Positions 31,134-62,969 of a DNA stretch of 64,000 nt are shown here, piece by piece. Under the pieces are notes generated by a model, which was given only the letters and a program-made list of their open reading frames with translations, was not told the origin of the DNA and searched no databases. The stretch spans positions 103,547 to 167,546 of the forward strand of contig CAZFZN010000012.1 of the NCBI GenBank assembly GCA_964523105.1, given 5' to 3'. The first letter of the stretch is position 1. Each line of letters starts with the position of its first letter. Both the position numbers and the translations under genes were made by a program. This stretch comes from an uncultured Akkermansia sp. GTDB taxonomy: Bacteria > Verrucomicrobiota > Verrucomicrobiia > Verrucomicrobiales > V1-33.

Positions 31134-31167
31134 TCCAGGCGAACCAATCCCTACAAAAAACGACTCC

Positions 31168-32058: not shown

Positions 32059-32062
32059 TTCT

Positions 32063-32635
32063 ATGAGCAAAACCATCATGCATGACCTGAAGACTGAGCG
32101 TACGGAACTGGCGCCGCCTTTGCCCGCCATTCTCATGGTGCTGCCAGTTCTCTTCTACATCGCCGCCGCGGGTTCCATCGGACTTGGAGCCTTGTTCACT
32201 GTGAAGGCGAAGCAGGCCCAGGCTGACGAAAGCCGCGAACTGGATGGAGAGCAGGAGTTGAACCGGACAATCGCTTCTCTTACGCAGGAGCAGAAGCAAA
32301 TCGAAGATACCACCACCAGGGCCAAAGAAGTGGAAACGTGGATCGACAGCAGCCAGCCGCTGATGGATGTCGTCGTTGCCGTCATTAATAGTGTGAGAAC
32401 AGGCAATACACTCTCGTCCATGAAGCTGACACGCATCCCTGACCGCCCGGATCAGATCGAGATGCGGCTTCAAATAAATTCCGGCGGCACCGTGCAAAAG
32501 GAGGAGACCGTTCAGTCGCTCGTCAAAGCGGGCTACCAGGCATTCCGCGATGATCTCATCGGGGACAAGAACGACCGGCTCGGGGACGTGACCTACACGG
32601 CAACGCTCGTAAAGACTCAGATAGGGGATGACTAA
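32063..32635 (+). CDS. Putative PilN-like inner membrane protein
   Basis: N-terminal TM, coiled coil, C-terminal ferredoxin-like segment (LSSMKL..IEMRLQI); follows the PilM-like gene. Confidence 0.6.
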   Translation: MSKTIMHDLKTERTELAPPLPAILMVLPVLFYIAAAGSIGLGALFTVKAKQAQADESRELDGEQELNRTIASLTQEQKQIEDTTTRAKEVETWIDSSQPLMDVVVAVINSVRTGNTLSSMKLTRIPDRPDQIEMRLQINSGGTVQKEETVQSLVKAGYQAFRDDLIGDKNDRLGDVTYTATLVKTQIGDD

Positions 32636-32658
32636 TTTTACCTCAAGACCATTCAGTT

Positions 32659-33225
32659 ATGAATACCAAACATTTATCCTGTGTCCTACTCTTTGCAGTA
32701 GTCATCTGCCTTTTCATGGGCACGAAAGTGCTCAATCAACGGATGGTCACCGCGACGGAGGCTTCCGAGGACGCGAGAGCCCGCCATGAAGCCGCCCAGT
32801 CGAAGCATACGATGGCCAGAGCAGTACTCGAAAAGGTCCGCACGGACACGGCCGCACACCGCAAGTTCCTCGAAATGTGGCGGCAGAAATTTGAAATGAG
32901 TGGAAGCGACGCTATCGCCGCTAAAAACGAGTTTGGGCGCATGTTAAAGCGCTTTCCTAATTTGACTCCATTCGGCAACCAAACCAACCCGCCGGTTGAG
33001 AACAAGGACATGAGCTATGTGAACCGCCGCGTGGCCACCACGGTCAAGCTTGAAGGCGATGCCGAAAAAGCGGTGCAGTTGTTGGCTTCAATCGAACGCG
33101 AACTGCCCACCAGCCGCATTTCCTCACTCGAGATCAGGAAAGGTCAGCGCAACAACGACATTGAACTCGACTTGTCCGTCGAATTCCCGCTCCTCGCGGT
33201 GCCCGCCGGCGAAAAACAGCCTTAA
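32659..33225 (+). CDS. Putative PilO-like inner membrane protein
   Basis: N-terminal TM, coiled coil, VKLEG..VQLLASIERELPTSRISSLEI..LDLSVEF, typical of PilO/GspM. Confidence 0.65.
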   Translation: MNTKHLSCVLLFAVVICLFMGTKVLNQRMVTATEASEDARARHEAAQSKHTMARAVLEKVRTDTAAHRKFLEMWRQKFEMSGSDAIAAKNEFGRMLKRFPNLTPFGNQTNPPVENKDMSYVNRRVATTVKLEGDAEKAVQLLASIERELPTSRISSLEIRKGQRNNDIELDLSVEFPLLAVPAGEKQP

Positions 33226-33243
33226 TAATATTCTCCTGCTGCT

Positions 33244-34119
33244 ATGAATACTCGCCAAATTATTACTGCCGCTCTTTTCGGGTGGGTGTCAACCGCCGGT
33301 GCGGAAGTGGAGATCACCATGGCCAAGCTCCGGGACATCGGTTTACTTCCTCAGGATAAGGCAGAACTCCGCCCTGAGGATAAACTTGATATGAAGCGCC
33401 GCAATCCCTTCGCCGAGCGCAAGAAGGCTGCGCCGAACAAGCCGGTCGAACAGGTTGAAACTGAAGAAAGTAAACTGCGGGCGTTCTTTGACAAAGAAAA
33501 GGTCAATGGAATCATGAAATTTGGGGACAAACACATCGTGTCTCTGGGGCGCCTTAGTTTGGAGGAGGGCCAGATTATTCGCCCCATCATTCCCAACCAG
33601 ACACAAATTCTCCGGGTTATTAAAGTGACGGATGCAGAACTGGAGATCGGCTGGGTCGAGGACGCCACGATTGGACTGGAACCTGTGGTGCCCCGGAAGA
33701 TTCAAAAGAAGATCAATTTGCGCCCTGAAGTTAGAGCACTTGTTGCCGGGGCTGATGAAGCTGGGGAGAAGGCTGCTATGTATGTTATGGATGACAAAGG
33801 AACAGTCGTCGTTCCTCACAAGAATGTATTTCCCAATCCATCGGATATTCTGGACAGCATTCCTCCAGGCAGCGACACCAATCCTGAGTCGGTTCTCAAT
33901 GAACAGGAGCGCCAGTCGCTCAACAATGCTTTGCAAGCATCGCAGAACGGAAATCCCCCGTCGATTCCGAAGCCGGATATCGATCCGTCGTCAGCCGTGC
34001 CTTCAGAGGCTCCTCCGGCACCCCCACTTGAAGACCCCGAGGATGCCGTGCAACCAGATCCTGATCTTGTTGAGCCGCCATCAGGCAATCAGCCTGCGGG
34101 CCAGCCTGGCCGCAGGTAG
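33244..34119 (+). CDS. Exported protein in the PilP position, with Pro/acidic tail
   Basis: Signal peptide, RRNPFAER, VNGIM..EGQII..VIKVTDAELEI beta segment as in PilP/GspC; low-complexity C-terminus; no lipobox. Confidence 0.5.
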   Translation: MNTRQIITAALFGWVSTAGAEVEITMAKLRDIGLLPQDKAELRPEDKLDMKRRNPFAERKKAAPNKPVEQVETEESKLRAFFDKEKVNGIMKFGDKHIVSLGRLSLEEGQIIRPIIPNQTQILRVIKVTDAELEIGWVEDATIGLEPVVPRKIQKKINLRPEVRALVAGADEAGEKAAMYVMDDKGTVVVPHKNVFPNPSDILDSIPPGSDTNPESVLNEQERQSLNNALQASQNGNPPSIPKPDIDPSSAVPSEAPPAPPLEDPEDAVQPDPDLVEPPSGNQPAGQPGRR

Positions 34120-34135
34120 CAATCCCGTCCTCGTC

Positions 34136-35167
34136 ATGACTTCCCCACGCTACATCATGGCGGCAGTTTCGCGTTATCGGCGCGGGTTCTCTCTCATTGA
34201 ACTCCTGGTTGTGGCCGGAGTGGGCGCACTGCTCTTTACCGCCGCCGCCCTTACCTTCCGAGTCATGGCCAAGAACCACCGGAATCCCGGAACCTTTCAG
34301 AAGGTTCCGCTTCCGGCGGGCGTGGGCGACAATTTCTACCCCGGTTCCGGGCTTTCCTTTGTGGACAGCTACGTAGCTCCGAATTTCGGACGCTGTTCGC
34401 AGGCTGATGCCCTGCGCACGTTATTTCTGGAGGAAGTCGAAAAGTCAGTGGCGGTTTTCATTCTGCCCCGGGGTGGGCACGTCAATACCATTCGTGGCCG
34501 AACCATCAATCTGTATGGCACCCTCCCTCAGGCTTTGGACACCCCTGCCGCGTTCCGGGAATTCCTGGCGGCAAATCCGGACACCGCCACTGCCGCCCAG
34601 GTATTCACTTCCTATCGCGGCGCACCGCCGGAGTCCGGCACTGTCACCACGACCACTATTGATCAGGACACCGGAGATACGATAGTCACCACTTCGACCC
34701 AGGCGATCACCAACGCGACGGTGTTTCTGCTGCAACCTTCGGGGTCCAACACCCAGCTTTGGATTCGTTGCGTTTATGAATTGGATTATTTGGCCATGAC
34801 GCCCAATTCGAGTGACGCAGCGGCTCCTGATGTTTCCTGTGTGTTCGCTTCAGTCCGCCGATATGTGGACTATACTCTGACACATTATTACGACTGTGTT
34901 TTCCGTGACTCGACAGTCTCCGACGCGGGCGTGCCGTGTGTCCATTTTGAACGCGCCGACCGCGCGATAGTGGCCGAAGGCGCTGCGGACATATTTAAGC
35001 GGGCCGCTAATCAGCCTTTTTACCTGATGTGGTGGCCGGACCCCGGACTTGCCCGGCTGCAGACCACAGGAGGCAGTTATACAGCCGGAACACCGCAAGC
35101 GGCCTATGCCCGTCACGAGGGGCAGACCTCCTATGTGTTCGTCATCCCGCAATTTCCTGCACTTTAA
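34136..35167 (+). CDS. Minor pilin (PilW/GspJ-like) with prepilin cleavage site
   Basis: RRG|FSLIELLVVAGVGALLF class III signal peptide with E5. Start reassigned to ATG 34136. Confidence 0.85.
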   Translation: MTSPRYIMAAVSRYRRGFSLIELLVVAGVGALLFTAAALTFRVMAKNHRNPGTFQKVPLPAGVGDNFYPGSGLSFVDSYVAPNFGRCSQADALRTLFLEEVEKSVAVFILPRGGHVNTIRGRTINLYGTLPQALDTPAAFREFLAANPDTATAAQVFTSYRGAPPESGTVTTTTIDQDTGDTIVTTSTQAITNATVFLLQPSGSNTQLWIRCVYELDYLAMTPNSSDAAAPDVSCVFASVRRYVDYTLTHYYDCVFRDSTVSDAGVPCVHFERADRAIVAEGAADIFKRAANQPFYLMWWPDPGLARLQTTGGSYTAGTPQAAYARHEGQTSYVFVIPQFPAL

Positions 35168-35179
35168 GCTGTTCCGCCA

Positions 35180-36655
35180 ATGAAAAGCCACACTTTATCG
35201 TTTCATGGCCGCCGCGGAGGAGTTATGGCCATCGCCCTCGTCAGTATCGGGGCTTTGACCATTGGCTTTACGACTTGGGTGGGCCTGCTCGGTCAGCGAA
35301 GCCGCGCCGGGGAGGTGGAAGAGCACGCGGCCCGCCGCCGCATCGCGTCGTGGAACTCCCGCGGCGCCATCAGAGAGTATGCTCTCGCCCGCGCCATAAC
35401 CTCCAGCCTGGATGACGACGGAATGAACTTCGATCCCCTCGCCGGCTGGAGTGTCACCGCTGCTCCTTCATGGTCAGGCTATCCCATGGAAAGCAATACC
35501 CGGCTGGCCGGATTGAACGGGTTTTCTTTCACCTGGGACTATCCTTATTCCAAAGTAATCGACACCCAGTCCGGCACTTTCGCGCTCGATTTCGTGCAGG
35601 CCGGCAACGGAAGACTGGATGCAGATTATACGGCGACCGCCAGCTATCAGAAAACTTATATACGAAGCCGCTGCCCGGTGCTGGGAGGTGATCTTCTCAT
35701 TGTACACCGTTCGAGCCTGACGCCTCCTGTCGATCCGGTCGTGGCCGGGAATATCTCCGTCACAGGCCGGGTGCTCCACTTTGTTCCTGAACTGTCCGAC
35801 ACTGCTTATACCGCCCGTTCGCTTCGGTTCACGTCTGCTCCGTCCTCCGCGGGCACGGGACTTCGTCCACTGGACCTTGCCGGCAATGCGATTGTGCCGT
35901 CGAATCTTTCTTGGACCCCTATAACATTCGGCAATATTGCAGGAAGTGCTGATTTCAGCGGGCAGTTGAATGTGATCGATGATGCTGCCAACGGCGGCAA
36001 TTCTCTTAGACAGAAGCTCACCGGATCGCCCGCCACCATTCAAATCACAGGTGCGACCACCATGAGCGATCCGCGCGGATTCGAAAGTGACGGGAACGGG
36101 TTGATCACGCTTACTCCTTCAATCGGGGCCACTAACCCTGCGGACATTCCCAGTATCGTGGTGGACAGCGAAGTTGAAGAAATCGTCATTGAAGGACAGG
36201 ATGACAGCAACTTCGCCACCTATGCGCGTTACCGGCCATCCATGGCATTGTGCTATGTCCAGGATGCTGCATCGACGCGACAGCTTCACACCATTCGCCT
36301 GCGCAGGCAGAACAGCCGGCGATTGATTCTGGCCATTAAACAGGAAGGCCCCAATCCGGGCACTCCTGTGAACATCATTGTCGAGGACACTCACTCCGTG
36401 AGCAACTGGCACATGGTGATCCTGGCGGAGAACACTCCTCTGGCTTTTTCCGCCGATGCCGCGGTATCCACGGTGAACCTCGTCGGCGGCATTCAGGCGA
36501 ATGCTCCGATCACCGGCCCTTCCGGCACGCAGACCCTTAATCTTGAACTGGAGACCGATACCCGCGGGCTGATTCGCATGACGCCGCGCGCTGCGTGGGT
36601 CGAGGTCGTTATGCCGGATAAGATCCCGGGAACCTCAAACGACAACACCTGGTAA
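35180..36655 (+). CDS. Large PilX/GspK-like minor pilin
   Basis: RRG|GVMAIALVSIGALTIG, lacking E5 as PilX/GspK pilins do; 491 aa; sits between two pilins. Confidence 0.7.
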   Translation: MKSHTLSFHGRRGGVMAIALVSIGALTIGFTTWVGLLGQRSRAGEVEEHAARRRIASWNSRGAIREYALARAITSSLDDDGMNFDPLAGWSVTAAPSWSGYPMESNTRLAGLNGFSFTWDYPYSKVIDTQSGTFALDFVQAGNGRLDADYTATASYQKTYIRSRCPVLGGDLLIVHRSSLTPPVDPVVAGNISVTGRVLHFVPELSDTAYTARSLRFTSAPSSAGTGLRPLDLAGNAIVPSNLSWTPITFGNIAGSADFSGQLNVIDDAANGGNSLRQKLTGSPATIQITGATTMSDPRGFESDGNGLITLTPSIGATNPADIPSIVVDSEVEEIVIEGQDDSNFATYARYRPSMALCYVQDAASTRQLHTIRLRRQNSRRLILAIKQEGPNPGTPVNIIVEDTHSVSNWHMVILAENTPLAFSADAAVSTVNLVGGIQANAPITGPSGTQTLNLELETDTRGLIRMTPRAAWVEVVMPDKIPGTSNDNTW

Positions 36656-36664
36656 CGGCCCGCC

Positions 36665-37105
36665 ATGAAAACGCAGCAATTCATTTCGCCAAAGCATCGC
36701 GCCGGCTATACGCTCATTGAGATCATGGCTGCGGCGGGCTTGATCGCCGCGGCGGTCGCGGCCGCGTCTTCGCTCTCAATGACGATGACTGCTCAGGAGG
36801 AACTCTCGAGGGGGCAGTCAGCGGCGATACGCTACGGTGAAGCCGTTTCACGGCTCTGGCAGCTGGGAGTGAATCCCTCAGCCGTGCTCCTCGCGCAGCA
36901 TCAGGGATTGCAGGGCAGCAATGGATCCTCTCCCATGAGTTTCTCCATCGTGGACGGCACTCCTGTCGATCTGGGTGACGACGGAGGGATTGCAGAGGGC
37001 ACTGTGGAGACGGCAACTGTTACAATTACCTGGCGACCATACGGTTCCACCTCGGACTCATTCATCTCATTCGACGTACTTCGTCCCGCCCCTGTTCACC
37101 GATAA
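36665..37105 (+). CDS. Minor pilin (PilV/GspI-like)
   Basis: RAG|YTLIEIMAAAGLIAAA; short globular domain ending VTITW. Confidence 0.85.
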   Translation: MKTQQFISPKHRAGYTLIEIMAAAGLIAAAVAAASSLSMTMTAQEELSRGQSAAIRYGEAVSRLWQLGVNPSAVLLAQHQGLQGSNGSSPMSFSIVDGTPVDLGDDGGIAEGTVETATVTITWRPYGSTSDSFISFDVLRPAPVHR

Positions 37106-37141
37106 CGCACCTCCTTTGCCACAGCTAACCGACTCCACGCC

Positions 37142-38398
37142 ATGCTCAAGAAAGTAGTCCTCACCAATGTCAATTCCGGGCGCACTCAGGAGATCATCGT
37201 GGACACTGATGATGACGCCAAAGCCATCGTCGGCTCGGGTAAAGCCAGCAATGAAGTGGCAAGGGTGACGACGATTTCCGGCGCCGATGAGAAAGTCTAT
37301 CGCCTGTCCGTAAAGAAGCCGAATCTGGAGGACCGGGTCAATCTGTTTTCCGGAATCGCACGGTGCCTTGAACGCAACATCTCGACCATAAAGAGCTTCG
37401 AGTTGCAGGCGAACCGGGTTAGATCGCCACGGTACAAGGGGACGGTCGCAGATATTGCTGCGCAGATAAGTCAGGGGGAAAAAGTCAGCGATGCCATGGG
37501 ACGGCATCAGGACCTCTTTGGAGAGGCGCTGCTTGCGCTGATTCGCGCCGGTGAGGAAGCCGGCCAACTCCCCGAAGTGTGCCGGCGCATTGCCAAGGGA
37601 CAGAAGAAGACTCTGAAGATTCTCAAGAAATTGAAGAGCGGCATGATCTACCCGTGCATCGTGCTGATCATCGGTGTGGGGGTCATCATCACCATGTCCA
37701 TGACGCTCGTGCCGGCATTGAAGGGGCTCTACGGGCAGTTTAACAGCGAACTGCCGACGGCGACCAAGGCCATGATGATACTCTCCGATATTCTGCTCAG
37801 TCAGCCGTGGCTGGTGGCGCTGCCGATCTTCGGGATGGTCATGCTGTTTCGAAACTGGGGTAAAATTTGCGCCATTCCCGGCGTGCAGCGATTCTGGCTC
37901 AAACTCCCGACGGTTGGAAACATCGTCCGAAAGAGTTCAGCGGCGGTCAGTTTCCGTACGCTGGCCATGCTCATTGAGAGCAATGTCCGGGTCTCGACCG
38001 CACTCCGGATTACCGGAGAAAGCGCCCCTAACGTCACTCATCGCGAGTTTTTCTCCTCCGTAAAAGAACATATCGAGGAGGGTCTCGCCCTGCATGAATC
38101 CTTCCTGCTGGAATCCCACCGCCTCGGCCCGGACGGCCGCCCGATTTCCGGACTGATGCAGCTCAGCAGCGAAACCGGTTCCTCGACTGACATGCTTGAG
38201 GAGATCGCCGACGACTATGAGGAGGAACTGGATAATATCGGGAATCAGATAGACAAGATTCTGGAGCCAATCACGATTATCGTCCTCGGCATCATGGTTG
38301 GGTTTCTCATCTACGCCATCTACTCGCCCATCTTCAATCTTGGCAAGGTCGTTCTTCCCAAGACAAAGCCGGGTGCCGCCGCGGCCGCAAAGAAGTAG
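37142..38398 (+). CDS. pilC: PilC/GspF-family inner membrane platform protein
   Basis: GEKVSDAM..LIRAGEEAGQL, MIYP, ELPTATK, second repeat GLALHES..ETGS..MLEEIADDYEEE..LEP..IYSPIF. Confidence 0.92.
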   Translation: MLKKVVLTNVNSGRTQEIIVDTDDDAKAIVGSGKASNEVARVTTISGADEKVYRLSVKKPNLEDRVNLFSGIARCLERNISTIKSFELQANRVRSPRYKGTVADIAAQISQGEKVSDAMGRHQDLFGEALLALIRAGEEAGQLPEVCRRIAKGQKKTLKILKKLKSGMIYPCIVLIIGVGVIITMSMTLVPALKGLYGQFNSELPTATKAMMILSDILLSQPWLVALPIFGMVMLFRNWGKICAIPGVQRFWLKLPTVGNIVRKSSAAVSFRTLAMLIESNVRVSTALRITGESAPNVTHREFFSSVKEHIEEGLALHESFLLESHRLGPDGRPISGLMQLSSETGSSTDMLEEIADDYEEELDNIGNQIDKILEPITIIVLGIMVGFLIYAIYSPIFNLGKVVLPKTKPGAAAAAKK

Positions 38399-52760: not shown

Positions 52761-52799
52761 TCAGTGCTCAGTGCTCAGTGGTCAGTGCTCAGTGGTCAG
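52761..52799. repeat. Heptamer tandem repeat (TCAGTG[C/G]) x5 plus partial unit
   Basis: Units start at 52761, 52768, 52775, 52782, 52789 and 52796 (partial). Confidence 0.9.
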
Positions 52800-54294
52800 C
52801 CACTTGTTGGTTTTTTGTCATGTCTTCAAGAGGGCTGGAAGCGGAGAAGGTGATTTCGAGGTCGTCTTTGCCGATGACGATCTTTTCCACAAGAGCTTCC
52901 ACGACGCGGCGACGATTGTCGGGGGGAAGCTGGGGCCAGTTGGCGTAGAGGGATTGGGCTTCGTTGGTGACGGCGTCGGCGCTGAGGTTCTGGACACGGG
53001 CGAAGTCTATCTCCCCCTCCAATCGGGGGATGTCGGTCTGGAGCTGGAGGAGGCGTTCGGCCAGCGGCTTGTGGTAGTTGCCGAATTCCTCGATGGGGAT
53101 GTGGCCGTCAAGGTAGAGGCGGTGGGTCTTGGCCATTTCGTCCCGGACTTTCTGGAGTTCGCCCTGCTGGTTGGCGAGGAGTTTCTGCTTTTCTTCGATC
53201 TGAAGCGCGGCGCTGGCGAGGTGGGCGGTGACGCGGGGCCTTTCCCCGAAGATGGATTTGAGTTCTTCAATGAAGATGGCGTCGAGGTCTTCGATGGCGA
53301 TCTTGTTGCGGCAGGCTTCGCAGATGTATTTGCGGGTGCCGGTGCGGACATACATGCGGGCGCCGCAGTGACAGTGCGCGAGGCCGGCGAAGGTCTGGAC
53401 GGGTTTGCGTCCGGGGCGTTTTACTTTGCGGCCCTGCTGCTCTTCGATGATTTGGTTGGCTTGGTTCCAGACGGTTTCGCTGACGAGGGGTTCGCATTCC
53501 ACACTTCCCCATTCGGATTCGTCTTTGATCTCGTTGGTCCATGCGCCGGTGCGGCGATAGACGTTGAGGCGGTGGGTGCCCTTGGCGGACCAGTCGGTGA
53601 GGATGCGCCCGATGGCCATGTCGCTCCATGGGCAGCCGGCGCGGGTGCGGTAGCCGGAGGCGTTCATTTCGCGGGCGACGCGGCCCTTGCGGCGGTGTTT
53701 GAGGAAGAGTTCGTAAGCAAGCTTGCGGACGGGGCCTTCCACGGGATGCGGGACGAGTTTCTTGTCCTTCCAGTGGTAGCCGTAAGGGGATTTGCCGTTG
53801 GTGGGTTTGCCGAGTTTGGCGCGGATTTGTATCGAGGCTTTGATCCGGTCGCCGATTTCCTCCCTCTCCCACTGCGCCATCGCGGCGATCATGGTGTAAA
53901 AGAGGCGTCCGCTGGGTGTGGAGGTGTCGATGGATTCCTGCAGCGAAATGAGGTCGGCGTTCGCGGCGCGGAAGGTGTCAGCGAACTCAAGGAGTTCTTT
54001 GGTGTTGCGGGCGAGGCGCGCGAGCTTGGAGAAGATGAGGGCCTTTATGTGGCCGCGCTGGAGGTCGCGAAGCATGCGTTTGGCTTCGGGGTGCTCCATG
54101 ACGGATTTGCCGGAGACTCCGGCGAGGTCATAGACTTCCCTGACGTTCCAGCCTTTGGCGGCGGCGTAGTTGCGGGCGCGGGCTTCGTGATGCTCGGGGC
54201 TTTCGCCCTGCGCCTGATCTTCGGTGCTGACGCGAATCCAGATGCCGACGGATTTGGCGGCCGGTGCAGTGAGGGGCTGGGGTTTTGCTTTCAT
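52789..54294 (-). CDS. Large serine recombinase (integrase)
   Basis: IRVST catalytic Ser, EVYDLAGVSG, LARLARN, AQWEREEI, PYGY, CHCG..CEAC zinc ribbon, coiled coil, LVEKIVI. Start reassigned to ATG 54294. Confidence 0.95.
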   Translation of the reverse strand: MKAKPQPLTAPAAKSVGIWIRVSTEDQAQGESPEHHEARARNYAAAKGWNVREVYDLAGVSGKSVMEHPEAKRMLRDLQRGHIKALIFSKLARLARNTKELLEFADTFRAANADLISLQESIDTSTPSGRLFYTMIAAMAQWEREEIGDRIKASIQIRAKLGKPTNGKSPYGYHWKDKKLVPHPVEGPVRKLAYELFLKHRRKGRVAREMNASGYRTRAGCPWSDMAIGRILTDWSAKGTHRLNVYRRTGAWTNEIKDESEWGSVECEPLVSETVWNQANQIIEEQQGRKVKRPGRKPVQTFAGLAHCHCGARMYVRTGTRKYICEACRNKIAIEDLDAIFIEELKSIFGERPRVTAHLASAALQIEEKQKLLANQQGELQKVRDEMAKTHRLYLDGHIPIEEFGNYHKPLAERLLQLQTDIPRLEGEIDFARVQNLSADAVTNEAQSLYANWPQLPPDNRRRVVEALVEKIVIGKDDLEITFSASSPLEDMTKNQQVADH

Positions 54295-54513
54295 GCGGCC
54301 TAAGTAAATGAGAAAGCATGCGGACGCAATTTGAATCCATCTTGCGTTGGTAATTTGCGATTGAGTACTCCTTCCACGGGAAGTGCCTCTCACCGTGCGC
54401 TTCTTCTTCAAGATCGAATCGCTTCCGTTTTGCAGCGAGACCATCTGTTCGCCGGCACAGCGCGGAGGCTGCACAACTTGACAGGCATGGTCACGATATG
54501 ATAGGATCAACGT

Positions 54514-54810
54514 ATGAGAAAGCACAGCAAACCAAGCAAAGCGGGCGCGAAGCGGCGCATTCCGCCACGGATTCGCCTCAGTCCCGCTGTCCTGCGGACT
54601 GCGACACTGGCGGAGATCAATTTCGGCCTGCGGGCGCACCGTGATTTGGGTCACCTGCCCTTCGGGTTCACCACAACGAGCGGAAGGAAGATCATGGTGG
54701 CGACTGCTTCCGATTACAGCTTCACATTCATCGCGGCAGCGGAGAGATTCGGACAGTGGACGAAGGGACACCAGCTTCGGGAACTGAACGAAGTCACGCT
54801 CACCAATTGA
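54514..54810 (+). CDS. Small basic hypothetical protein divergent from the integrase
   Basis: 98 aa, ATG start, followed by a terminator-like hairpin. Confidence 0.5.
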   Translation: MRKHSKPSKAGAKRRIPPRIRLSPAVLRTATLAEINFGLRAHRDLGHLPFGFTTTSGRKIMVATASDYSFTFIAAAERFGQWTKGHQLRELNEVTLTN

Positions 54811-54908
54811 GTCGGGGGAACTTTTGCAAGTCGGCACGAATCGCTGTTCCCGGCAATATGTGCTGATCAGAATGATCGGCACGGCGTCCACCCTGACACG
54901 CCTTAAGA

Positions 54909-55280: not shown

Positions 55281-58200
55281 ATGCCCTCCTCTAGTTCTTC
55301 CGGCCCGTTCTACGGCACGACTCCGATTTGTCTCTGCTGCTGCGATTGCTATGACGGCATGGGCGGCGTCGATAAAGGCCTGACTGACAACCCCGTGCGC
55401 GCCTTTGACGGCATTCCCGTCGTTTCGGTGGAGGGTATTTCCGGGCGCGGGTTGAATATCCCCTTCGGGCTGGAGATGGCATGGGGGCCGGCTGGCGGTT
55501 CGGGGACAGTTGGCGCTGGATGGGTGCTGCACGACTTGGCGAGGCTGCAAACCGCGGCTTATCCCGGAGAGATTACATATGTGGCCGGGCCAAACCAGAT
55601 TGAGGTCTTTGTGGCCACGGAGACGCTGGACGTCTGGAAGGGGGCCTACTACGTGCGCAGCACGCTGGTTTTCGATTCCATGACCGACCTCTACACGATG
55701 ACCATGCCGGATGGCAGCCAGAGAGTCTTCGATGATGAGGGGTATTTGACAATCATTCGCTCTGCCGGCGGTGTGGAACTGGGAGTGGCCGGAGGAGCCA
55801 CCGTTTCTGATGTTACCGGCACGGACTTTCGTTATGGATTCGATTGGGCGGACGGGAGAATTTCCACCGTCACACAGTATGTCACCAGAGACACAGTTGA
55901 GTCCGCCGTCCGGCGCACGAAATTCACCTACTGGAGCGGGAGCCCGGCCAAACTTCAGTCTGTGACCAATGAGGATCCGCCGCTTCCCGGGGACACGGAG
56001 TGGCAGCGCTGCGAGAAGACTTTCTTCACCTATCATGGCGATGACCTGCTCAAGCATGTGCTGCGCGACGCTTCGCTCAGGCGCATGGTGTCTGCGGGCA
56101 TCAGCATGGAAACCCCCGAAGAGATCGCGGCGATCACTGAGGAGCAGTACGATACCTATGCCGATGAAAAGTTCACCTGGGACGGCACCAAAGTGCAGAC
56201 GGAGGCCACTCACGGCGGGCAGTACCTATGGGAGTTTGCCTATGGCACCAGCGGCTACACCGATTCCGATCCGAACGTCTGGTCGAACAACACGGTCGTG
56301 ACGCGACCCGACGGCTCGGTAGAGACGCTCTTCTTCAATCAGGCCGGAAGTGTGCTGCTGCGGCAGGTGGATAAGGATGGCCAGAAGTGGTGGCCGGTGT
56401 GCCAGAGGTTCGATGACCGGATGCGGGTCATCGAAGTGATCTCCGCGGCGGCGATTTCCGAAGTGGACCCCGATCCCTTGGACCCGGAGGGTTTGATTAC
56501 CTTCAATGCGGACGTGGGCCTCATCCGCGGCTTTTCCTACGACGACGATGCCGGTCAGGTCTTCGAGGAGTGGGTCCAGAAGGGATCGGAAGGCGATCAG
56601 GTTCTGCTGCGCGAGAAAGGATACGAACCTCCGCGGACGGTCGGGAGTTTTCCGCCCATTTACATGGTTACGTCCGAGAAGGTTTATCTGAACGCCACTG
56701 ATTTTGCGGAAACGACCTTCGCCTACGCATGGTACACGGATCAGTTCCAGATGCTCAGCCGCACCACCACGCTGCCGGAGGTGCCGGTGGATCAGAACGG
56801 CACCGGTGATGATGAGGTGACCATCGTGGAAACCTTCGATGCGCAGGGCTTCCCCGACGTCCGCACGGATCAGGCCGGCGTGGTCACGGATTACGACTAC
56901 GATCCCGTCACCGGCGGGATGACGCAGAAGATCGAGGATGACGGCGGGCTGGATCTGACCACCGATTACGAACTCGACGACGAAGGGCGCACCATTCTGG
57001 AAAAAGGCCCGGTGCATGAGATTGACCTCGCCGGCACTCCCACCACCATCCGCCGCGCCGTGTGGACGTATTACCGCGACCCGGAGCAGGAGCGCATCAC
57101 GTTTCCCGGCTACATCATTATCGGCGAGAGCGATGCGGAACTCAGCAGCCACTGCGTTGGCCCGGTGACGATCGAGCGCGGGTTCGTCGCGCCTGACCTG
57201 CCGGACGGCACTTCGTTCACCGATACCATCGCCGCCAAGTGGGAGCTGGAGCGCCTGCCGCTGCCGGAGGAGGTCTATCCGCAGGAAACATGGACGCGCT
57301 GGCAGCGCCGGCATTACAGCCAGGGCGGCGAGCTGATCGCGGAGCGGGTCTATCATGTCATCCCGGCCAGCGGCGAAGGCGTGAAGGACACGAACTACGC
57401 GGAGACTGCCTACGCCCGCGACAGTGCGGGGCGCGTGGACCGCGTGACGACGCCCGGCGGCACCATTCAGCAGACCATTTTCAACACCATGGGCTGGGTC
57501 ACTTCCCGTCTTGTCGGCACCGCGCCGGGGAATATGGTGACGACCGTGGAGAACGAGTACGACGACAACGACGACGAAGGCGACGGGCTGCTGACCAAAT
57601 CCACCCGCCCGGTGGACGGCAGTCCGGGCGGCGATCGCGTCACCACTTTCACCTACGACTGGCGGCAGCGGCCGGAGACAGTTAGTACCGTCGTGGACGT
57701 GTCCAGCGGCGAGGCCACGCTCATTACCGAAAACACCTACGACAATCGCAGCCTCGTCACGGAAGTCCGCGAGTATCGCACCGCCACCGGCGTGATTGGC
57801 AATCTCCTCGGCCAGACCTTCAACTTCTTCGATCCGCTCGGACGGCTCTACCGCACCTTCCGCTACAAAGTGGACAACGCCATCAGCAGCAGCCCCACCG
57901 ATTACCTTGAAGACAACACATGGTATGACCCCGTGGGCCGCGTGTCCGTGCAGTGGCCCGCCGGCAGCCAGGCCTTTCAGGCCCTGACCTACGATGCCGT
58001 GGGCCGGGTCACACATGCCTACACGGCCTACGAGCCGGGCTGGACCAGCAGTTCCTCCTCCAGCGGCTACGGCAATGCGCCGAACGTGGACGAATCCATC
58101 GTCATGGAGCAGCGGGACATGGAGTATGACGATGCCGGCAATGTCACCAGCACCGTGCTGCGCCAGCGCTATGACGATGCCACGGAAACCGGCCCCCTCG

Positions 58201-61076
58201 GCGACCACAACTCGGTGCCCGAAGCCCGCGTCAGTTGGCTGGCGAGCTATCCGGATGCCCTCGGGCGCACCGTGGCCACGGCCAATTACGGCACCAGAGG
58301 CAACACCGACGATATATGGGAACGCCCGGCCACCGTCCCCGCCGGCACCGACGACATCCTGGTGAGCCTCACCGCGTTCAACCCTGCCGGCGAGCCGTAT
58401 CTCACCACCGATCCCATGCTGGCGCAGACCACCCGCACCTGGGACGCCGCGGGCCGGCTCATCGAGGAAATCCAGGGCCGCGTCCCCGGGCGCGACATGC
58501 CGGCCATGGACCGCATCACCCGCTACACCTACAACTCCGACGGCAACCTCACCGTCCTCACCGCGCTCAACAACAACGGCGAGGAACAGAAAACTCAGTG
58601 GGTCTATGGCGTCACCGTCGCCGGCGGCTCCGCACTGTGCAGCAACCTGCTCGTCTCGCAGAAAATCTATCCCGACAGCCAGGGCGGCACCGACCTCGTC
58701 ACCTACACCTGCAACCGCGCCGGGCAGGTCACCACCATGACCGATCAGGCCGGACTGGTCCACAGCTACACCTACGACCAGCTCGGCCGCCAGACCGCGG
58801 ATGAAGTCACCCACTGGGGCAGTTCCGCCGCGGACCGCACCATTACAAAACTCACCACCCTCTACAATACCCGCGGCCTCGTCGTCGTTGCCAACAGTTA
58901 TGATGAGGAAGACACCGCCCGCAGCACCGTCCAATTTTTCTACAATGACTGGCGGCAACTGGCCACGGAATCCCAGGGCCACACCGGGGCCTCCGCCCGC
59001 AATATCCTCTACGGCTACGCCTCCGGCACCGCGAATACTATCCGGCGCACCAGCATGACCTACGTTTCGGGCCAGCCGAGCCCGCCCGTCCTCAACTACC
59101 TCTACGGCAGCGGCGGCACCGACCACGGCGACGCCCTCAGCCGCCCCAGCTTCCTCCAGGACGGGTCCACCAGCATTGTCGGCTACACCTGGCTCGGGCT
59201 GAGCACGGCGGTGGATGTGAATTACATCACCCCGGCCACCCGCATGTCCCTCGGCAACGCCGGCAATCACTATTCCGGCCTCGACCGCTTTGGCCGGCCC
59301 ATTGACATCCAGTGGATCAAGAGCAGCACCGCCCTCGTCCACGCACGCTACGGCTACGACCGCAGCAGCAATCGCCAGTGGCGGCGGGATGAAGCCGCTC
59401 ACGACAGCTCACCCGCGGTCACCACCGAAGACCAGTGGTACGAATACGATGGCCTCTACCAGGTCCGCGGCTTCCAGCGCGGTGATCTGGTGGGCACCGT
59501 CACCGACCACTACTCCGGCATCACCCCCGTGGACCAGAACCAGTCATGGAACTACGACGCCATGGGCAACTGGCGCGGCTTCACCAGCGATGCCCTCAGC
59601 CAGACCCGCCAGTTCAACAAGGTCAACGAAATCACCGGCCTCACCGGTCCATCAGGAGTCATCACTCCGCAGTATGACCCAACGGGAAACATGACCGTCA
59701 TGCCCTCCCTGGGGCACCCCGATTTGGAGCCTCCGGTGCCGGAGTGGACCGAAGCCGAGTCCCTCACATGGGACGCCTGGAACCGGCTCGTCAAAGTCAC
59801 CCGCGGCGGCGAGACCGTCGCCGAATACACCTACGACGCCCTCTTCCGCCGCATTACCAAAACCGTCGGCGAACTCACCCGCCGCTTCTACTACAACGAC
59901 CAGTGGCAAATCATCGAAGAGTACCTCAACTCCTCCTCCTCGCCCCAGGTCCGCTACTGGTACGGCATCCGCGATATCAATGACATCGCCCGCCGCCAGT
60001 TCTTCGCCACGCCCACCTCCACCGACCTCTACGCCCTGCGCGAAACCATGAACGTCGCCGCCCTGGTCAACGACGAGGGCACGCTCCAGCAGCGCATGGC
60101 CTACGACGCCTTCGGCACAGCCCGCTTCATGGAACCCGACTGGGATCCCGCCACCAACACCGCCGCCTGGCCGCTGCTCTTCCACGGCCACTACCAGGAC
60201 ACGGAAACAGGGCTCTACCAGATGCGCTTCAGATATTACCACCCGAAGCTGGGTGTGTGGCTCAGCAGGGATCCGATGGAGGAAACTGGGGGGCTAAACC
60301 TACAGACGTTCACAGCAAATGCGCCCGTCAATTATTTGGATCCTGACGGAAGATTCGTTCCTTTCCTAATTCGCCTCGCCGTCGGTCATTATAAATTTTT
60401 GGGAGGAATGATAGCCGGCGGCGTGGTAGCATCTAAGACGCAGGCTGATATCGATACATCCAGTGCATCAACAGGTGAACCAGAGGAATGCACGACTAAT
60501 CTGAGGTACGACGTAGACGTACCAAGCCTGACTCAATGGATAATCCTTCAATACCAAGTCGGATGCAAGGGGGGGGTCAAGATTACCAAAGCTACGGAGA
60601 CAGGTTTTTGGAATGGCTTCTGGCTCATAACTGCTTGGAGCCACTCTAGCATAGAAGTAAAGAAGCGCGAGTGGTTGAATACGTGCTGCGAAGATTGTAA
60701 TGGTGATTGGGGTATGAAGCAGCGAGTTACGCTAACTGTAAAGTGGGACATCTACAACTCGACACTAGGGATCAAGCACCACATCGGTTATCAAAGTGGA
60801 AGCGCTGACACGACCGTAGACATATGCTGCCCAAATGAAAATGCGAAGTATTGGTGTCCGAAAATGCAAAAGTTTTTTAGATTCGATTGGCTATTGAAGG
60901 ATAGCAAGAATCACAGCGGTATATCCTCTTTGGATTACTCTTCGCCGCCTTCGTCGGGCAGAGCTTTTTGGGGAGTAAACTCTTCGGTTATGACCACTCG
61001 AGGACTTGGTTCTATGAACTCGAAGTCCTCAAATTCGAATAATCCCTGCGATCGCTCATGTAATTGCTCAAATTAG
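55281..61076 (+). CDS. Rhs/YD-repeat polymorphic toxin-like protein, 1931 aa
   Basis: Many YD repeats (YTYDQLGR, YGYDRSSNR, YDAMGNW); core PLLFHGHYQDTETGLYQMRFRYYHPKLGVWLSRDP..PVNYLDPDG; variable C-terminus from 60351. Confidence 0.95.
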   Translation: MPSSSSSGPFYGTTPICLCCCDCYDGMGGVDKGLTDNPVRAFDGIPVVSVEGISGRGLNIPFGLEMAWGPAGGSGTVGAGWVLHDLARLQTAAYPGEITYVAGPNQIEVFVATETLDVWKGAYYVRSTLVFDSMTDLYTMTMPDGSQRVFDDEGYLTIIRSAGGVELGVAGGATVSDVTGTDFRYGFDWADGRISTVTQYVTRDTVESAVRRTKFTYWSGSPAKLQSVTNEDPPLPGDTEWQRCEKTFFTYHGDDLLKHVLRDASLRRMVSAGISMETPEEIAAITEEQYDTYADEKFTWDGTKVQTEATHGGQYLWEFAYGTSGYTDSDPNVWSNNTVVTRPDGSVETLFFNQAGSVLLRQVDKDGQKWWPVCQRFDDRMRVIEVISAAAISEVDPDPLDPEGLITFNADVGLIRGFSYDDDAGQVFEEWVQKGSEGDQVLLREKGYEPPRTVGSFPPIYMVTSEKVYLNATDFAETTFAYAWYTDQFQMLSRTTTLPEVPVDQNGTGDDEVTIVETFDAQGFPDVRTDQAGVVTDYDYDPVTGGMTQKIEDDGGLDLTTDYELDDEGRTILEKGPVHEIDLAGTPTTIRRAVWTYYRDPEQERITFPGYIIIGESDAELSSHCVGPVTIERGFVAPDLPDGTSFTDTIAAKWELERLPLPEEVYPQETWTRWQRRHYSQGGELIAERVYHVIPASGEGVKDTNYAETAYARDSAGRVDRVTTPGGTIQQTIFNTMGWVTSRLVGTAPGNMVTTVENEYDDNDDEGDGLLTKSTRPVDGSPGGDRVTTFTYDWRQRPETVSTVVDVSSGEATLITENTYDNRSLVTEVREYRTATGVIGNLLGQTFNFFDPLGRLYRTFRYKVDNAISSSPTDYLEDNTWYDPVGRVSVQWPAGSQAFQALTYDAVGRVTHAYTAYEPGWTSSSSSSGYGNAPNVDESIVMEQRDMEYDDAGNVTSTVLRQRYDDATETGPLGDHNSVPEARVSWLASYPDALGRTVATANYGTRGNTDDIWERPATVPAGTDDILVSLTAFNPAGEPYLTTDPMLAQTTRTWDAAGRLIEEIQGRVPGRDMPAMDRITRYTYNSDGNLTVLTALNNNGEEQKTQWVYGVTVAGGSALCSNLLVSQKIYPDSQGGTDLVTYTCNRAGQVTTMTDQAGLVHSYTYDQLGRQTADEVTHWGSSAADRTITKLTTLYNTRGLVVVANSYDEEDTARSTVQFFYNDWRQLATESQGHTGASARNILYGYASGTANTIRRTSMTYVSGQPSPPVLNYLYGSGGTDHGDALSRPSFLQDGSTSIVGYTWLGLSTAVDVNYITPATRMSLGNAGNHYSGLDRFGRPIDIQWIKSSTALVHARYGYDRSSNRQWRRDEAAHDSSPAVTTEDQWYEYDGLYQVRGFQRGDLVGTVTDHYSGITPVDQNQSWNYDAMGNWRGFTSDALSQTRQFNKVNEITGLTGPSGVITPQYDPTGNMTVMPSLGHPDLEPPVPEWTEAESLTWDAWNRLVKVTRGGETVAEYTYDALFRRITKTVGELTRRFYYNDQWQIIEEYLNSSSSPQVRYWYGIRDINDIARRQFFATPTSTDLYALRETMNVAALVNDEGTLQQRMAYDAFGTARFMEPDWDPATNTAAWPLLFHGHYQDTETGLYQMRFRYYHPKLGVWLSRDPMEETGGLNLQTFTANAPVNYLDPDGRFVPFLIRLAVGHYKFLGGMIAGGVVASKTQADIDTSSASTGEPEECTTNLRYDVDVPSLTQWIILQYQVGCKGGVKITKATETGFWNGFWLITAWSHSSIEVKKREWLNTCCEDCNGDWGMKQRVTLTVKWDIYNSTLGIKHHIGYQSGSADTTVDICCPNENAKYWCPKMQKFFRFDWLLKDSKNHSGISSLDYSSPPSSGRAFWGVNSSVMTTRGLGSMNSKSSNSNNPCDRSCNCSN

Positions 61077-61126
61077 CCGAATTTTATATGCATTTACGCG
61101 ATAGCAAACAATTGGGATAACGACTC

Positions 61127-61699
61127 ATGACTGCGGGTTCTTCATTTTGGGATCAATCGGGGACAGCCAAGCGCATACTGTGCGTGAGCGCAATCCCATT
61201 AATATTTTTTACAAACTTTGAACTAACTTACAGCGACATACATGGTGACGCGGTCTCCGCTGAGTATTCTGGCCTCCGCCTCAGCGGCGTATCAAGTGCG
61301 ATAAGTTCCTTATGGGTTCTGTATTTCGGGTTGGGGCTAATCCGGACTATAGTTGCCGGCAATATTTTAAAGGCAGCGGGGAAGGGGTTCAGCCCGAACG
61401 ATTGGGCTGTTTGGTGCAGTTATTTCCCATCCTTTCGGCTTTATTTATATACTGCTCCGTTATTTCTCGGGTTTCGCTGTTCATGGTTCAGCGAGGCTGC
61501 CAATCGGTACAGCACACTGTCCTTTGGAACGACTTCATCCGTCGCACCAGTGATCTTATCACTAGCGGCAGCTACTCTGTTGAACCTTTATATAGCATCA
61601 GCTCAAATGATCGGACGACACTTGAAGTTAGCTCGAATTAATATCTGTGAGAACTCTTCGGATATGGACGTGGAGCAACCGCATGAGGATCGGAAATGA
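61127..61699 (+). CDS. Putative immunity protein, multi-pass membrane
   Basis: Starts 50 bp after the Rhs stop, low GC like the Rhs C-terminus, about four hydrophobic segments. Confidence 0.6.
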   Translation: MTAGSSFWDQSGTAKRILCVSAIPLIFFTNFELTYSDIHGDAVSAEYSGLRLSGVSSAISSLWVLYFGLGLIRTIVAGNILKAAGKGFSPNDWAVWCSYFPSFRLYLYTAPLFLGFRCSWFSEAANRYSTLSFGTTSSVAPVILSLAAATLLNLYIASAQMIGRHLKLARINICENSSDMDVEQPHEDRK

Positions 61700-61769
61700 G
61701 GGCAAGGGGACGGCATGTAATTCTCAATTCAGGGCGGCGGTGGGCTAACGCTGACAAACTAAACAGGCC

Positions 61770-61873
61770 ATGTCCCATCCTACAACACTCATCGCAAAAC
61801 TACCAGGCCCCCGGCGACATCCTGATGCTGACGGCGGCGGTGCGGGACTTGCACCGGACGCGTCCGGGGGAAG
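61770..61873 (+). pseudogene. Frameshifted 5' fragment of a homolog of the downstream GT9-like gene
   Basis: Encodes QNYQAPGDILMLTAAVRDLHR, matching the start of the 62013 gene; 2-bp deletion after ACTCATC and synonymous differences. Confidence 0.85.
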
Positions 61874-62012
61874 GAATTGGGGAATTGGGGTCAGGGAATT
61901 GGGGAATTGGAGGGGAATTGGGGTCAGTGTGCATAAATTGACAAACCAAACCGAAATTGCGGAGGGGAATTGGGGTCAGTGTGCATAAATTGACAAACCA
62001 AACCGAAATTGC
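61873..62012. repeat. GGAATTGG short repeats plus a perfect 52-bp tandem duplication
   Basis: GGAATTGG units at 61873-61910; identical copies 61909-61960 and 61961-62012. Confidence 0.9.
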
Positions 62013-62969
62013 GTGCCTCAACCCGCCAAACTCATCCTGCAAAACAGCCAGGCCCCCGGCGACATTCTGATGCTGACCGCGGCGGTGCGGGATTTGCACC
62101 GGTGCCATCCGGGGAAGGTCCTCACGGACGTGCGCACGCCATTCCCTGACCTGTGGCGGCACAATCCCTACATTACTCCCCTCAGCGACGAAGACGCCGC
62201 GGCGGAGCGGCTGCACTGCCATTACCCGCTGATTCACCGCAGCAACAAGGAGCCGGTGCATTTCCTGCACGGATTCAGCGCCTACCTCGGCGAGCGGCTG
62301 GGTCTGCGCCTCGCACCCACAGCCTTCAAGGGCGACATCCACCTCACCAAAGAGGAAAAAGCCGAGGAGCCGCTGGTGCATCGCCTGACGGGAGACACCA
62401 GCCCCTACTGGATCATCGTCGCGGGCGGGAAATTCGACTTCACCATCAAGTGGTGGCCCACGGAGCGGTATCAGGCGGTGGTGGATCACTTCAAGGGCCG
62501 CATCCGTTTTGTGCAGGACGGCCTCTTGGAGCACCACCATCCGCCGCTGCGCGACGTGATTGATCTGCGCGGCCAGGTGCCGCTGCGGGAGCTGGTGAAA
62601 ATGATGCACCACGCCGCCGGGGTCATCTGCCCCGTGACCATGCACATGCACCTCTGCGCCGCCGTGGAAACCCCCAAAGGCCGCCCGCCGCTGCGCCCCT
62701 GCGTGGTCGTGGCCGGCGGTCGCGAGCCGCCGCACTGGGAAGCCTATCCCGGCCACCGCTTCCTGCATACCATCGGCCAACTGCGCTGCTGCCAGCACGG
62801 CGGCTGCTGGCGCTCCCGCGTGAAGCCACTGGGCGACGGCAGTCGCAAAGACCAGCCCGGCGACCTCTGCGTGGATGTGGTCAATGACCTGCCCCACTGC
62901 ATGGACCTCGTGACGCCGGAGGATGTGATCCGGGAGGTGGAAAAGTTTCTCCCGCTGTGGAAGCTGTGA
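62013..62969 (+). CDS. GT9-like (heptosyltransferase fold) glycosyltransferase, Cys-rich
   Basis: APGDILMLTAAVRDL, IKWWPTERYQ.V, DLRG..LREL, ICPVTMHMHLCAA, VVVAGGRE; CCQHGGCW..C..C tail. Confidence 0.8.
   Translation: MPQPAKLILQNSQAPGDILMLTAAVRDLHRCHPGKVLTDVRTPFPDLWRHNPYITPLSDEDAAAERLHCHYPLIHRSNKEPVHFLHGFSAYLGERLGLRLAPTAFKGDIHLTKEEKAEEPLVHRLTGDTSPYWIIVAGGKFDFTIKWWPTERYQAVVDHFKGRIRFVQDGLLEHHHPPLRDVIDLRGQVPLRELVKMMHHAAGVICPVTMHMHLCAAVETPKGRPPLRPCVVVAGGREPPHWEAYPGHRFLHTIGQLRCCQHGGCWRSRVKPLGDGSRKDQPGDLCVDVVNDLPHCMDLVTPEDVIREVEKFLPLWKL

Follow-up and report, generated by a model that had tools for sequence, protein, structure and literature searches.

A stretch of 64,000 nucleotides from contig CAZFZN010000012.1 of an uncultured Akkermansia sp. 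(assembly GCA_964523105.1), referred to below as the window, contains an Rhs/YD-repeat polymorphic toxin gene on the plus strand (55281..61076). According to the list of open reading frames (ORFs), this gene encodes a protein of 1931 amino acids. Its last 241 residues constitute an orphan, cysteine-rich C-terminal domain, here called the tail or tip (60351..61073, plus strand), which has been characterized by searches, open-frame statistics and purifying selection and is presumed to be toxin cargo. A small ORF on the same strand (61127..61699) follows at a short distance and encodes a candidate immunity protein of 190 amino acids, recognized by its hydropathy, loop charges, open frame and an independent gene call. 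Tail and small ORF together (60351-61699) very probably represent a toxin/immunity cassette. The region is closed by a glycosyltransferase gene of the GT9 family (62013..62969, plus strand), identified by Pfam Glyco_transf_9 and by its presence in related loci.

Rhs core, tip boundary and base composition

The assignment of the gene to the Rhs family rests on the YD/RHS repeats (Pfam RHS_repeat, E 1.7e-08; NCBIfam YD_repeat_2x, E 1.2e-07), on the Rhs_assc_core model and on solved structures. The Rhs_assc_core model (NCBIfam TIGR03696) covers residues 1608-1690 with 73.7 bits against a cutoff of 32.5 (E 1.2e-20), and the last residue of the core is G1690 of the sequence NYLDPDG (nt 60348-60350). 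In a phmmer search against the PDB sequences, the core end was aligned with Tse5, the Rhs protein of Salmonella bongori, RhsA, Tse15, YenC2 and TccC2, the last 195 core residues being alignable to solved Rhs shells. All of these alignments end at residues 1690-1692, and the variable tip follows directly. Since the alignments with solved Rhs and TcC proteins stop there, the boundary given by the original prediction, which placed the domain immediately after the DPDG motif (tail residues 1691-1931), is right.

The Rhs-associated core, or C-terminal plug (60102..60350, plus strand), carries an aspartyl-protease motif recognized by TIGR03696, by reading of the sequence and by comparison with Tse5. 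Motifs of this type have the form DPXG-X18/19-DPXG. That of Tse5 reads DPXGX19DPXG, with D1141 and D1164 as catalytic residues, and cleavage takes place one residue past the last glycine, at L1168|I1169 (PMC10684867). The corresponding aspartates of the window protein are D1664 (nt 60270-60272) and D1687 (nt 60339-60341), with the same spacing of 23 residues; the first motif reads DPME, where the glycine is not kept, and the second reads DPDG. Judged from its residues, the plug is complete and the motif intact. By analogy with Tse5, the scissile bond is probably R1691|F1692. The core therefore ends at nt 60350 as had been predicted, and the probable cut lies one residue beyond the stated start of the domain.

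The base composition changes close to this boundary. The core (58281-60200) has a GC content of 0.647 and a GC content at third codon positions (GC3) of 0.867. Values fall to 0.54 and 0.64 at the core end (60201-60350) and to 0.465 and 0.498 in the tail (60351-61073); the next ORF (61127-61696) is similar (0.481 and 0.495), while the gene at 62013-62969 returns to 0.656 and 0.843. The GC content of tip and small ORF is about 15 points under that of the genome. In a maximum-likelihood fit with two change points, the left break falls at 60296, the optimum being flat from 60206 to 60330, and lies within the last 20-50 core codons. This bears out the drop that had been noted at about 60240, inside the core, and agrees with an exchange of tips by recombination inside the core end. 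By composition and change point, a low-GC cassette (60296..61770, no strand assigned; GC about 0.47-0.48 in a window of 0.62) runs from the last core codons through the tip to the immunity candidate. The right change point was fitted at about 62047; GC is near 0.60 again at 61700-61899, where a copy of a GT9 fragment lies, and about 0.54 over the repeat region at 61900-62099.

The cysteine-rich tail

The tail is set apart from the core by its residues. It contains 11 cysteines, or 4.6% against 0.6% in the core, located at tail positions 47, 72, 112, 113, 116, 159, 160, 169, 233, 237 and 239, together with 4.1% tryptophan and 11.6% serine. It opens with a hydrophobic, glycine-rich stretch, FVPFLIRLAVGHYKFLGGMIAGGVVA, followed by an acidic and polar linker. 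The middle part is rich in tryptophan and cysteine and holds C47, C72, C112, C113, C116, C159, C160 and C169, and the serine- and asparagine-rich end closes with PCDRSCNCSN. The hydrophobic start and the CDRSCNCSN terminus of the original prediction were both reproduced by reading of the sequence.

No family of the Pfam, NCBIfam or PADLOC collections, which include nuclease, deaminase, ADP-ribosyltransferase (ART), lipase, peptidoglycan hydrolase, colicin pore and other toxin profiles, matched the tip at E<=1. In PHROGs, tip and downstream ORF gave a single match, to a family without assigned function (E 0.13). Nothing was obtained at E<=10 among the PDB sequences, and there was no match in a word-indexed search of 5.8 billion protein clusters or in an exhaustive phmmer search of 1.84 billion representatives. 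Searches of GTDB genome contigs and JGI metagenome contigs, and of plasmids with tblastn, yielded no locus. Foldseek comparisons of the tip models, made twice against the PDB and once against BFVD, gave nothing at E<=0.001, although the models are too weak for this absence to weigh much. All TM-scores were 0.34 or lower except the best one, 0.39, which belongs to a fungal defoliating toxin and is not significant (E 1.1). CapZ, LptE and levivirus coats recurred as weak Foldseek matches and were dropped, as they reflect a generic antiparallel sheet plus helix. The tip thus appears, from these comparisons, to be without relative among about 15 billion predicted proteins, and its description as an unrecognized domain holds across profile, protein, genome and structure searches. 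The structure prediction and Foldseek search proposed at the time have now been run and matched no known toxin family, on models of low confidence.

An orphan of this kind might be a decaying or non-functional remnant without toxicity, whose frame is open by chance or through recent acquisition. The lack of relatives, the low-complexity Ser/Asn tail, which is predicted to be disordered, and the rearrangement scars just downstream would suit such a remnant. However, the tail frame is free of stop codons although 13.7 would be expected, a result equalled by none of 20,000 shuffles; the remaining five frames of the region contain 8-21 stops, and the protease motif that precedes the tail is intact. 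Tip and partner are also found on a 2.1-kb contig (L001) that Logan assembled independently from a public run, and the gene caller predicted both. A 251-nt contig from a different sediment metagenome is 94.8% identical over 60786-61034. Its 12 listed differences from the window comprise 7 synonymous and 5 non-synonymous changes (sites 52 and 197), which by hand calculation from the substitution counts correspond to a ratio of non-synonymous to synonymous substitution rates (dN/dS) of about 0.2 (binomial p about 0.005). Cys159, Cys160 and Cys169 of the core are unchanged in this variant, and four of the five amino acid changes fall within the disordered tail. Because of the open frame, the independent contig and this ratio, the tip can be regarded as a selected protein rather than a chance ORF or a wreck: it is a genuine coding sequence under purifying selection, and the remnant explanation is very improbable.

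The 2.1-kb contig differs from the window only in a 20-nt patch of the Rhs core (contig positions 252-272, window 60065-60085). The window encodes ALVNDEGTLQQ there, and the contig ALVNASGTVQQ, in agreement with the consensus of the related proteins. The patch points to conversion of one Rhs allele or paralogue by another, or to two strains mixed in assembly.

The structure of the tail was modelled with AlphaFold2 from the single sequence, without an alignment, both for the full tail and for tail residues 45-190. The full-length model has a mean predicted local distance difference test (pLDDT) of 46.7 and a predicted template modelling score (pTM) of 0.42; the shorter one reaches 56.9 and 0.51, with local maxima of 75-82. 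Five long antiparallel strands occur in both models over tail residues of about 60-161, giving a predicted five-stranded antiparallel beta core (tail residues 60-161; 60528..60833, plus strand). It contains six of the eight cysteines that precede the C-terminal tail; C47 lies just before it and C169 in the next helix. The beta-rich Trp/Cys core that had been proposed is supported in this way, at low confidence. The helix past the sheet (tail residues 163-185; 60837..60905, plus strand) is predicted in the full-length model only and was not reproduced in the trimmed model, where this stretch has low confidence. The last 56 residues (60906..61073, plus strand) form the Ser/Asn-rich tail, predicted to be disordered (pLDDT 24-35).

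At the opposite end, a hydrophobic, glycine-rich helix with a GxxxG pattern (GGMIAGG) spans tail residues 2-28 (60354..60434, plus strand) and is a candidate membrane-associating element. AlphaFold2 models residues 3-19 as a helix, and the mean Eisenberg hydrophobicity is 0.54 over residues 2-28 (27 residues) and 0.72 over residues 16-28. A Kyte-Doolittle value of 1.4 is not reached by any 19-residue window in the tip. Beyond residues 2-28, which are moderately hydrophobic, a helix-rich and membrane-spanning tip comparable to that of Tse5 was not found.

The clustered cysteines (CCxxC, CC and CxxxCxC) could equally fit a metal site. The tip could then be an enzyme that acts in the cytoplasm and belongs to a new family, such as a metal-dependent nuclease or another modifier, with cysteines that bind zinc or an iron-sulfur (Fe-S) cluster; the downstream membrane protein would protect indirectly, for example by blocking import, or would not be an immunity protein. 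Most characterised Rhs tips are cytoplasmic enzymes. This prevalence (general knowledge; PMC3482391) argues for an enzyme, as do the spacing of the cysteines, which resembles metal knuckles, and the predicted two-layer arrangement of sheet plus helix, which is compatible with many small toxin folds. Against an enzyme stand the failure of every nuclease, deaminase, ART or other toxin profile to match at E<=1 and the nature of the partner protein.

The partner protein, the variable slot and its surroundings

The small ORF at 61127-61699 begins 50 nt past the toxin stop and resembles the tip in composition. Its frame has no stop codon where 9.2 are expected. Four hydrophobic segments, set by hand at about residues 16-34, 54-76, 92-116 and 133-158, can be read as predicted transmembrane helices. 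Segment 1 is preceded by K15 and R16 and segment 4 is followed by RHLKLAR, while the loop that joins segment 2 to segment 3 carries a net positive charge. As read from the sequence, these loop charges are broadly compatible with a topology in which both termini lie inside, a pattern clouded by two basic residues in the loop at 117-132. The loops measure 15-21 residues, and the protein has no sizeable soluble domain; as an immunity protein, it could encounter its toxin only in or at the membrane, as Tsi5 does with Tse5. No match was found in Pfam, NCBIfam or PADLOC, and a homologue search returned only the protein itself. An integral-membrane protein directly downstream of the tip, as in Tse5, is therefore present by prediction. 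It is the sole ORF within the low-GC cassette, and a polytopic membrane protein with short loops would be an unexpected partner for a cytoplasmic enzyme.

A search of GTDB genomes with the core end (residues 1200-1690) retrieved 13 loci. The close ones are 58-65% identical and come from metagenome-assembled genomes of Verrucomicrobiales or Verrucomicrobiota, and those of Planctomycetota are farther off. The window and all nine close loci diverge right after the D-x-x-G motif. The tips of the relatives measure 182-233 amino acids, and no tip or downstream ORF resembles another at E<0.01. Among the nine tips, one shows a sub-threshold Pfam similarity, to NucA/NucB, and the other eight show none. 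Several are rich in cysteine (6.1%, 6.4% and 4.9%). In the Verrucomicrobiales loci that were measured, tips and downstream ORFs have a GC content of 0.41-0.52, in comparison with 0.60-0.64 for the cores. An intact GT9 gene lies downstream of the cassette in four of the nine loci (L003, L004, L005 and L007), with 75-81% amino acid identity, and GT9 fragments are present in L008. The swapped tip postulated by the original prediction is strongly supported by these loci, which keep the core up to D-x-x-G and carry unrelated tips of low GC. The comparison suggests a fixed chromosomal slot, from the Rhs core to GT9, filled by interchangeable cassettes.

The partners encoded in these cassettes also bear on the target of the toxin. 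In seven of the nine relatives, the downstream ORF starts with a signal peptide, a lipobox or a membrane anchor. One of the two partner ORFs that lack such a start adjoins the NucA/NucB-like tip. That weak match is a point in favor of a cytoplasmic enzyme, but the exported partners in seven of nine sister cassettes argue against it, and on balance the enzyme reading of the window tip is rather unlikely. The extracytoplasmic or membrane target that had been deduced from the cysteines and the membrane protein gains indirect support from the four-segment partner and the exported partners; the target is still a matter of inference, and the cysteines fit a metal site equally well.

Truncated Rhs ORFs occur in two of the related loci, L006 (5857-8136, 759 amino acids) and L007 (3567-5435, 622 amino acids). 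Both keep the core end, the tip and the downstream ORF, and could represent tip modules that were orphaned or displaced. A scan of the window for additional Rhs core ends, orphan tips or copies of the tip revealed none, except for one weak core-like match at 37825-37962 on the minus strand (tblastn, 30% over 46 amino acids, E 0.005). It lies opposite to a T2SSF gene and is probably a chance match.

The right flank of the cassette contains several repeats. A copy of GT9 codons about 9-30 (61794..61857, plus strand; 64 nt, 92% identical to 62039-62102 by blastn; repeat family D1) is probably the scar of a cassette exchange with GT9 as right homology arm, to judge from the match. A perfect 2 x 52-nt tandem duplication (61909..62012, plus strand; repeat families D2 and D5) abuts the GT9 start codon, and short repeats, GGAATTGGGG, are found upstream of it at 61866-61909. 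The 52-nt unit contains TTGACA and occurs within the window at those two places only. In a promoter and terminator scan of 60300-62100, the number of sites was not above that of shuffled sequences.

Upstream of the Rhs gene, at a distance of about 390 nt and in divergent orientation, lies a large serine recombinase with Resolvase and Recombinase domains (52789-54891, minus strand); its open frame begins about 200 codons ahead of the likely start. A transfer of the whole Rhs gene on an island moved by this recombinase was considered and rejected, as the recombinase was not found beside the related Rhs genes while GT9 was. Because GT9, and not the recombinase, accompanies the relatives, the Rhs locus looks chromosomal, with the tip cassette alone being variable.

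The N-terminus of the Rhs protein contains a poly-serine run followed by TPICLCCCDCYDG. This poly-Ser and Cys-cluster motif (MPSSSSSGPFYGTTPICLCCCDCYDGMGG; 55281..55370, plus strand) recurs in L004, L005 and L008. Its form in the lineage is poly-Ser and then TPIC(C/L)CCxCxCY(E/D)G(M/Q)(G/A)G, and it stands at the Rhs N-termini of L004 (2410-2500) and L005 (502-600). In L008 (1775-1870), it opens a second ORF right after the immunity candidate. A word-indexed protein search returned a single match for the motif (P0002, 50% identity). Neither a signal peptide nor PAAR was detected at the N-terminus, and no Pfam domain in the motif, which may be a signal for delivery, anchoring or metal binding. 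In the Rhs protein and the 30 other larger ORFs scanned in the window, there was no PAAR, VgrG, Hcp or DUF4123-type domain. The features of an Rhs protein delivered by a type VI secretion system (T6SS), such as PAAR or prePAAR in the protein itself and VgrG, a chaperone or T6SS genes close by, were thus not seen among these ORFs of the 64-kb window, although a T6SS may be encoded elsewhere in the genome.

A further possibility is a tip aimed at eukaryotic cells, either as the hypervariable region of a TcC-like insecticidal toxin or as a secreted Cys-rich effector, beside which the downstream ORF would be an unrelated membrane protein. Cys-rich secreted domains are common among effectors directed at eukaryotes. 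This fits the tip, as do the alignment of the core end with TcC/YenC2, the lack of T6SS genes nearby and the fungal toxin that has the top Foldseek TM-score. That match, however, is not significant, the TcA and TcB partners of such a system were not found in the window, and a tight cassette of tip and small ORF with shared composition, present in every relative, is a hallmark of antibacterial toxin/immunity pairs. A eukaryotic target is accordingly considered highly improbable.

The remainder of the window includes the housekeeping genes for ClpX, PriA and subunit A of gyrase/topoisomerase IV, as well as sulfatases. A cluster resembling type II secretion systems or type IV pili (30090-38398) comprises a T2SSE ATPase, T2SSM_b, a pseudopilin with an N-methylation motif and T2SSF. 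An ORF at 24533-25816 (plus strand) joins a GIDE (E3 ubiquitin ligase-like) domain to a LemA domain and has no relation to the Rhs cassette.

Proposed action of the tip and comparison with known systems

The explanation that we favor, although with no more than even confidence in the whole of it, is an exchanged cassette of polymorphic toxin and immunity gene, the toxin being directed at the membrane or periplasm of rival bacteria. The tip would be cut off after R1691 and, like the tips of RhsA, Rhs1 and Tse5 (PMC10684867), would remain inside its shell; it would be delivered into neighboring bacteria by a route not visible in the window. In the target cell, approaching from the periplasm, it would act on the cytoplasmic membrane or an envelope process. 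The eight core cysteines would become oxidized in the target periplasm and stabilize the beta-sheet domain, and the hydrophobic GxxxG helix at the start of the tip would engage the membrane. The four-helix membrane protein would intercept the toxin in or at the membrane and so protect the producer. Taken separately, the location of the target somewhere in the envelope or membrane is inferred, with the balance standing about level. The weakest step is a guess at the activity itself: depolarization or permeabilization of the membrane, instead of an enzymatic attack on nucleic acids, is put forward tentatively and with more doubt than belief.

Several observations weigh against this explanation. 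The hydrophobic start is broken by arginine, histidine and lysine and remains below the classical transmembrane score. The core of the tip is beta-rich and mostly hydrophilic, in contrast to the helical pore domains of Tse5 and colicins, and the structure models are of low confidence (pLDDT 46.7 and 56.9). The CCxxC, CC and CxxxCxC patterns are also typical of cytoplasmic Zn or Fe-S sites, and the total of 11 cysteines is odd. Among the ORFs scanned in the 64-kb window, there is no secretion apparatus for Rhs proteins. Without homologues, the co-occurrence of tip and small ORF rests on one nearly identical contig.

The closest parallel to the proposed membrane-directed toxin is the Tse5/Tsi5 system from Pseudomonas aeruginosa. 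The tip of Tse5 has no predicted enzymatic activity and depolarizes cells, and its immunity protein is an integral-membrane protein (PMC9637101). Both Rhs shells end with a catalytic aspartate pair 23 residues apart (PMC9637101, PMC10684867), and the core ends can be aligned (E 1.6e-11). Both tips lack a predicted enzymatic activity (roughly 150 amino acids in Tse5, 241 in the window), and a small polytopic membrane protein is encoded directly downstream, being a predicted immunity candidate in the window. The tips themselves share no sequence similarity: that of Tse5 is predicted to be helical and strongly hydrophobic, whereas the window tip is beta-rich, rich in cysteine and tryptophan and, after its short hydrophobic start, mostly hydrophilic. 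The PAAR-like N-terminus and the VgrG partner of Tse5 have no counterpart in the window. Tsi5 has two predicted transmembrane helices, and the candidate of the window four.

With the canonical Rhs toxins (RhsA, Rhs1/Tre23 and the Rhs protein of S. bongori; PDB 7q97, 8qjb-d and 8h8a), the window protein shares the YD-repeat cocoon and the Rhs-associated core. Further likenesses are autoproteolytic release of the tip, which for the window is an analogy, exchange of tips by recombination at the core end, and a downstream immunity gene. The canonical tips are mostly recognized cytoplasmic enzymes with soluble immunity proteins, unlike the orphan tip of the window with its membrane-protein partner. 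They are delivered by the T6SS through PAAR and VgrG, and the window N-terminus has the Ser/Cys motif instead of PAAR.

Pore-forming colicins have ten-helix-bundle pore domains and inner-membrane immunity proteins of 3-4 helices. In these colicins and in CdiA-CT(EC93)/CdiI, as is generally known, a small inner-membrane protector with short loops implies a toxin that is met in or at the membrane, and the same would apply to the window candidate. No similarity in sequence or predicted secondary structure was found, and the comparison is one of logic alone. For the cysteines, a precedent is provided by Ssp2 and Ssp4 from Serratia marcescens, effectors that need disulfides formed in the periplasm of the target, and a like need would account for a tip rich in cysteine; T6SS effectors that act in the periplasm can depend on the DsbA of the target cell (PMC5792426). 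Ssp2 and Ssp4 have no sequence relationship to the tip and are not Rhs cargo, and a disulfide dependence of the window tip is an analogy.

In kind, the system is an ordinary Rhs polymorphic toxin, with an exchanged tip and an accompanying immunity gene; its payload is a true orphan. A survey of polymorphic toxins from 2012 listed Verrucomicrobia among the hosts of Rhs proteins and describes nothing like the tip of the window (PMC3482391). The surprise to a specialist would be moderate, because unannotated tips are the norm in this clade. A more far-reaching view would see here a new fold and family of disulfide-stabilized, membrane-directed toxins with a new four-helix immunity protein, in a T6SS-independent Rhs lineage of Verrucomicrobia that uses an undescribed route marked by the Ser/Cys motif and whose slot is a reservoir of mostly unknown toxins acting in the periplasm. 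Taken as a whole, this view is speculative and unlikely.

It is established that Rhs tips yield new toxic activities and new antibacterial targets. If the proposed action is not confirmed, the tail would be one further unannotated Rhs tip. If it proves to act on the envelope and to be countered by an immunity protein in the membrane, it would supply a new toxin fold and would draw attention to an apparently T6SS-independent and unstudied Rhs lineage of the PVC (Planctomycetes-Verrucomicrobia-Chlamydiae) superphylum, the payloads of which are nearly all unannotated.

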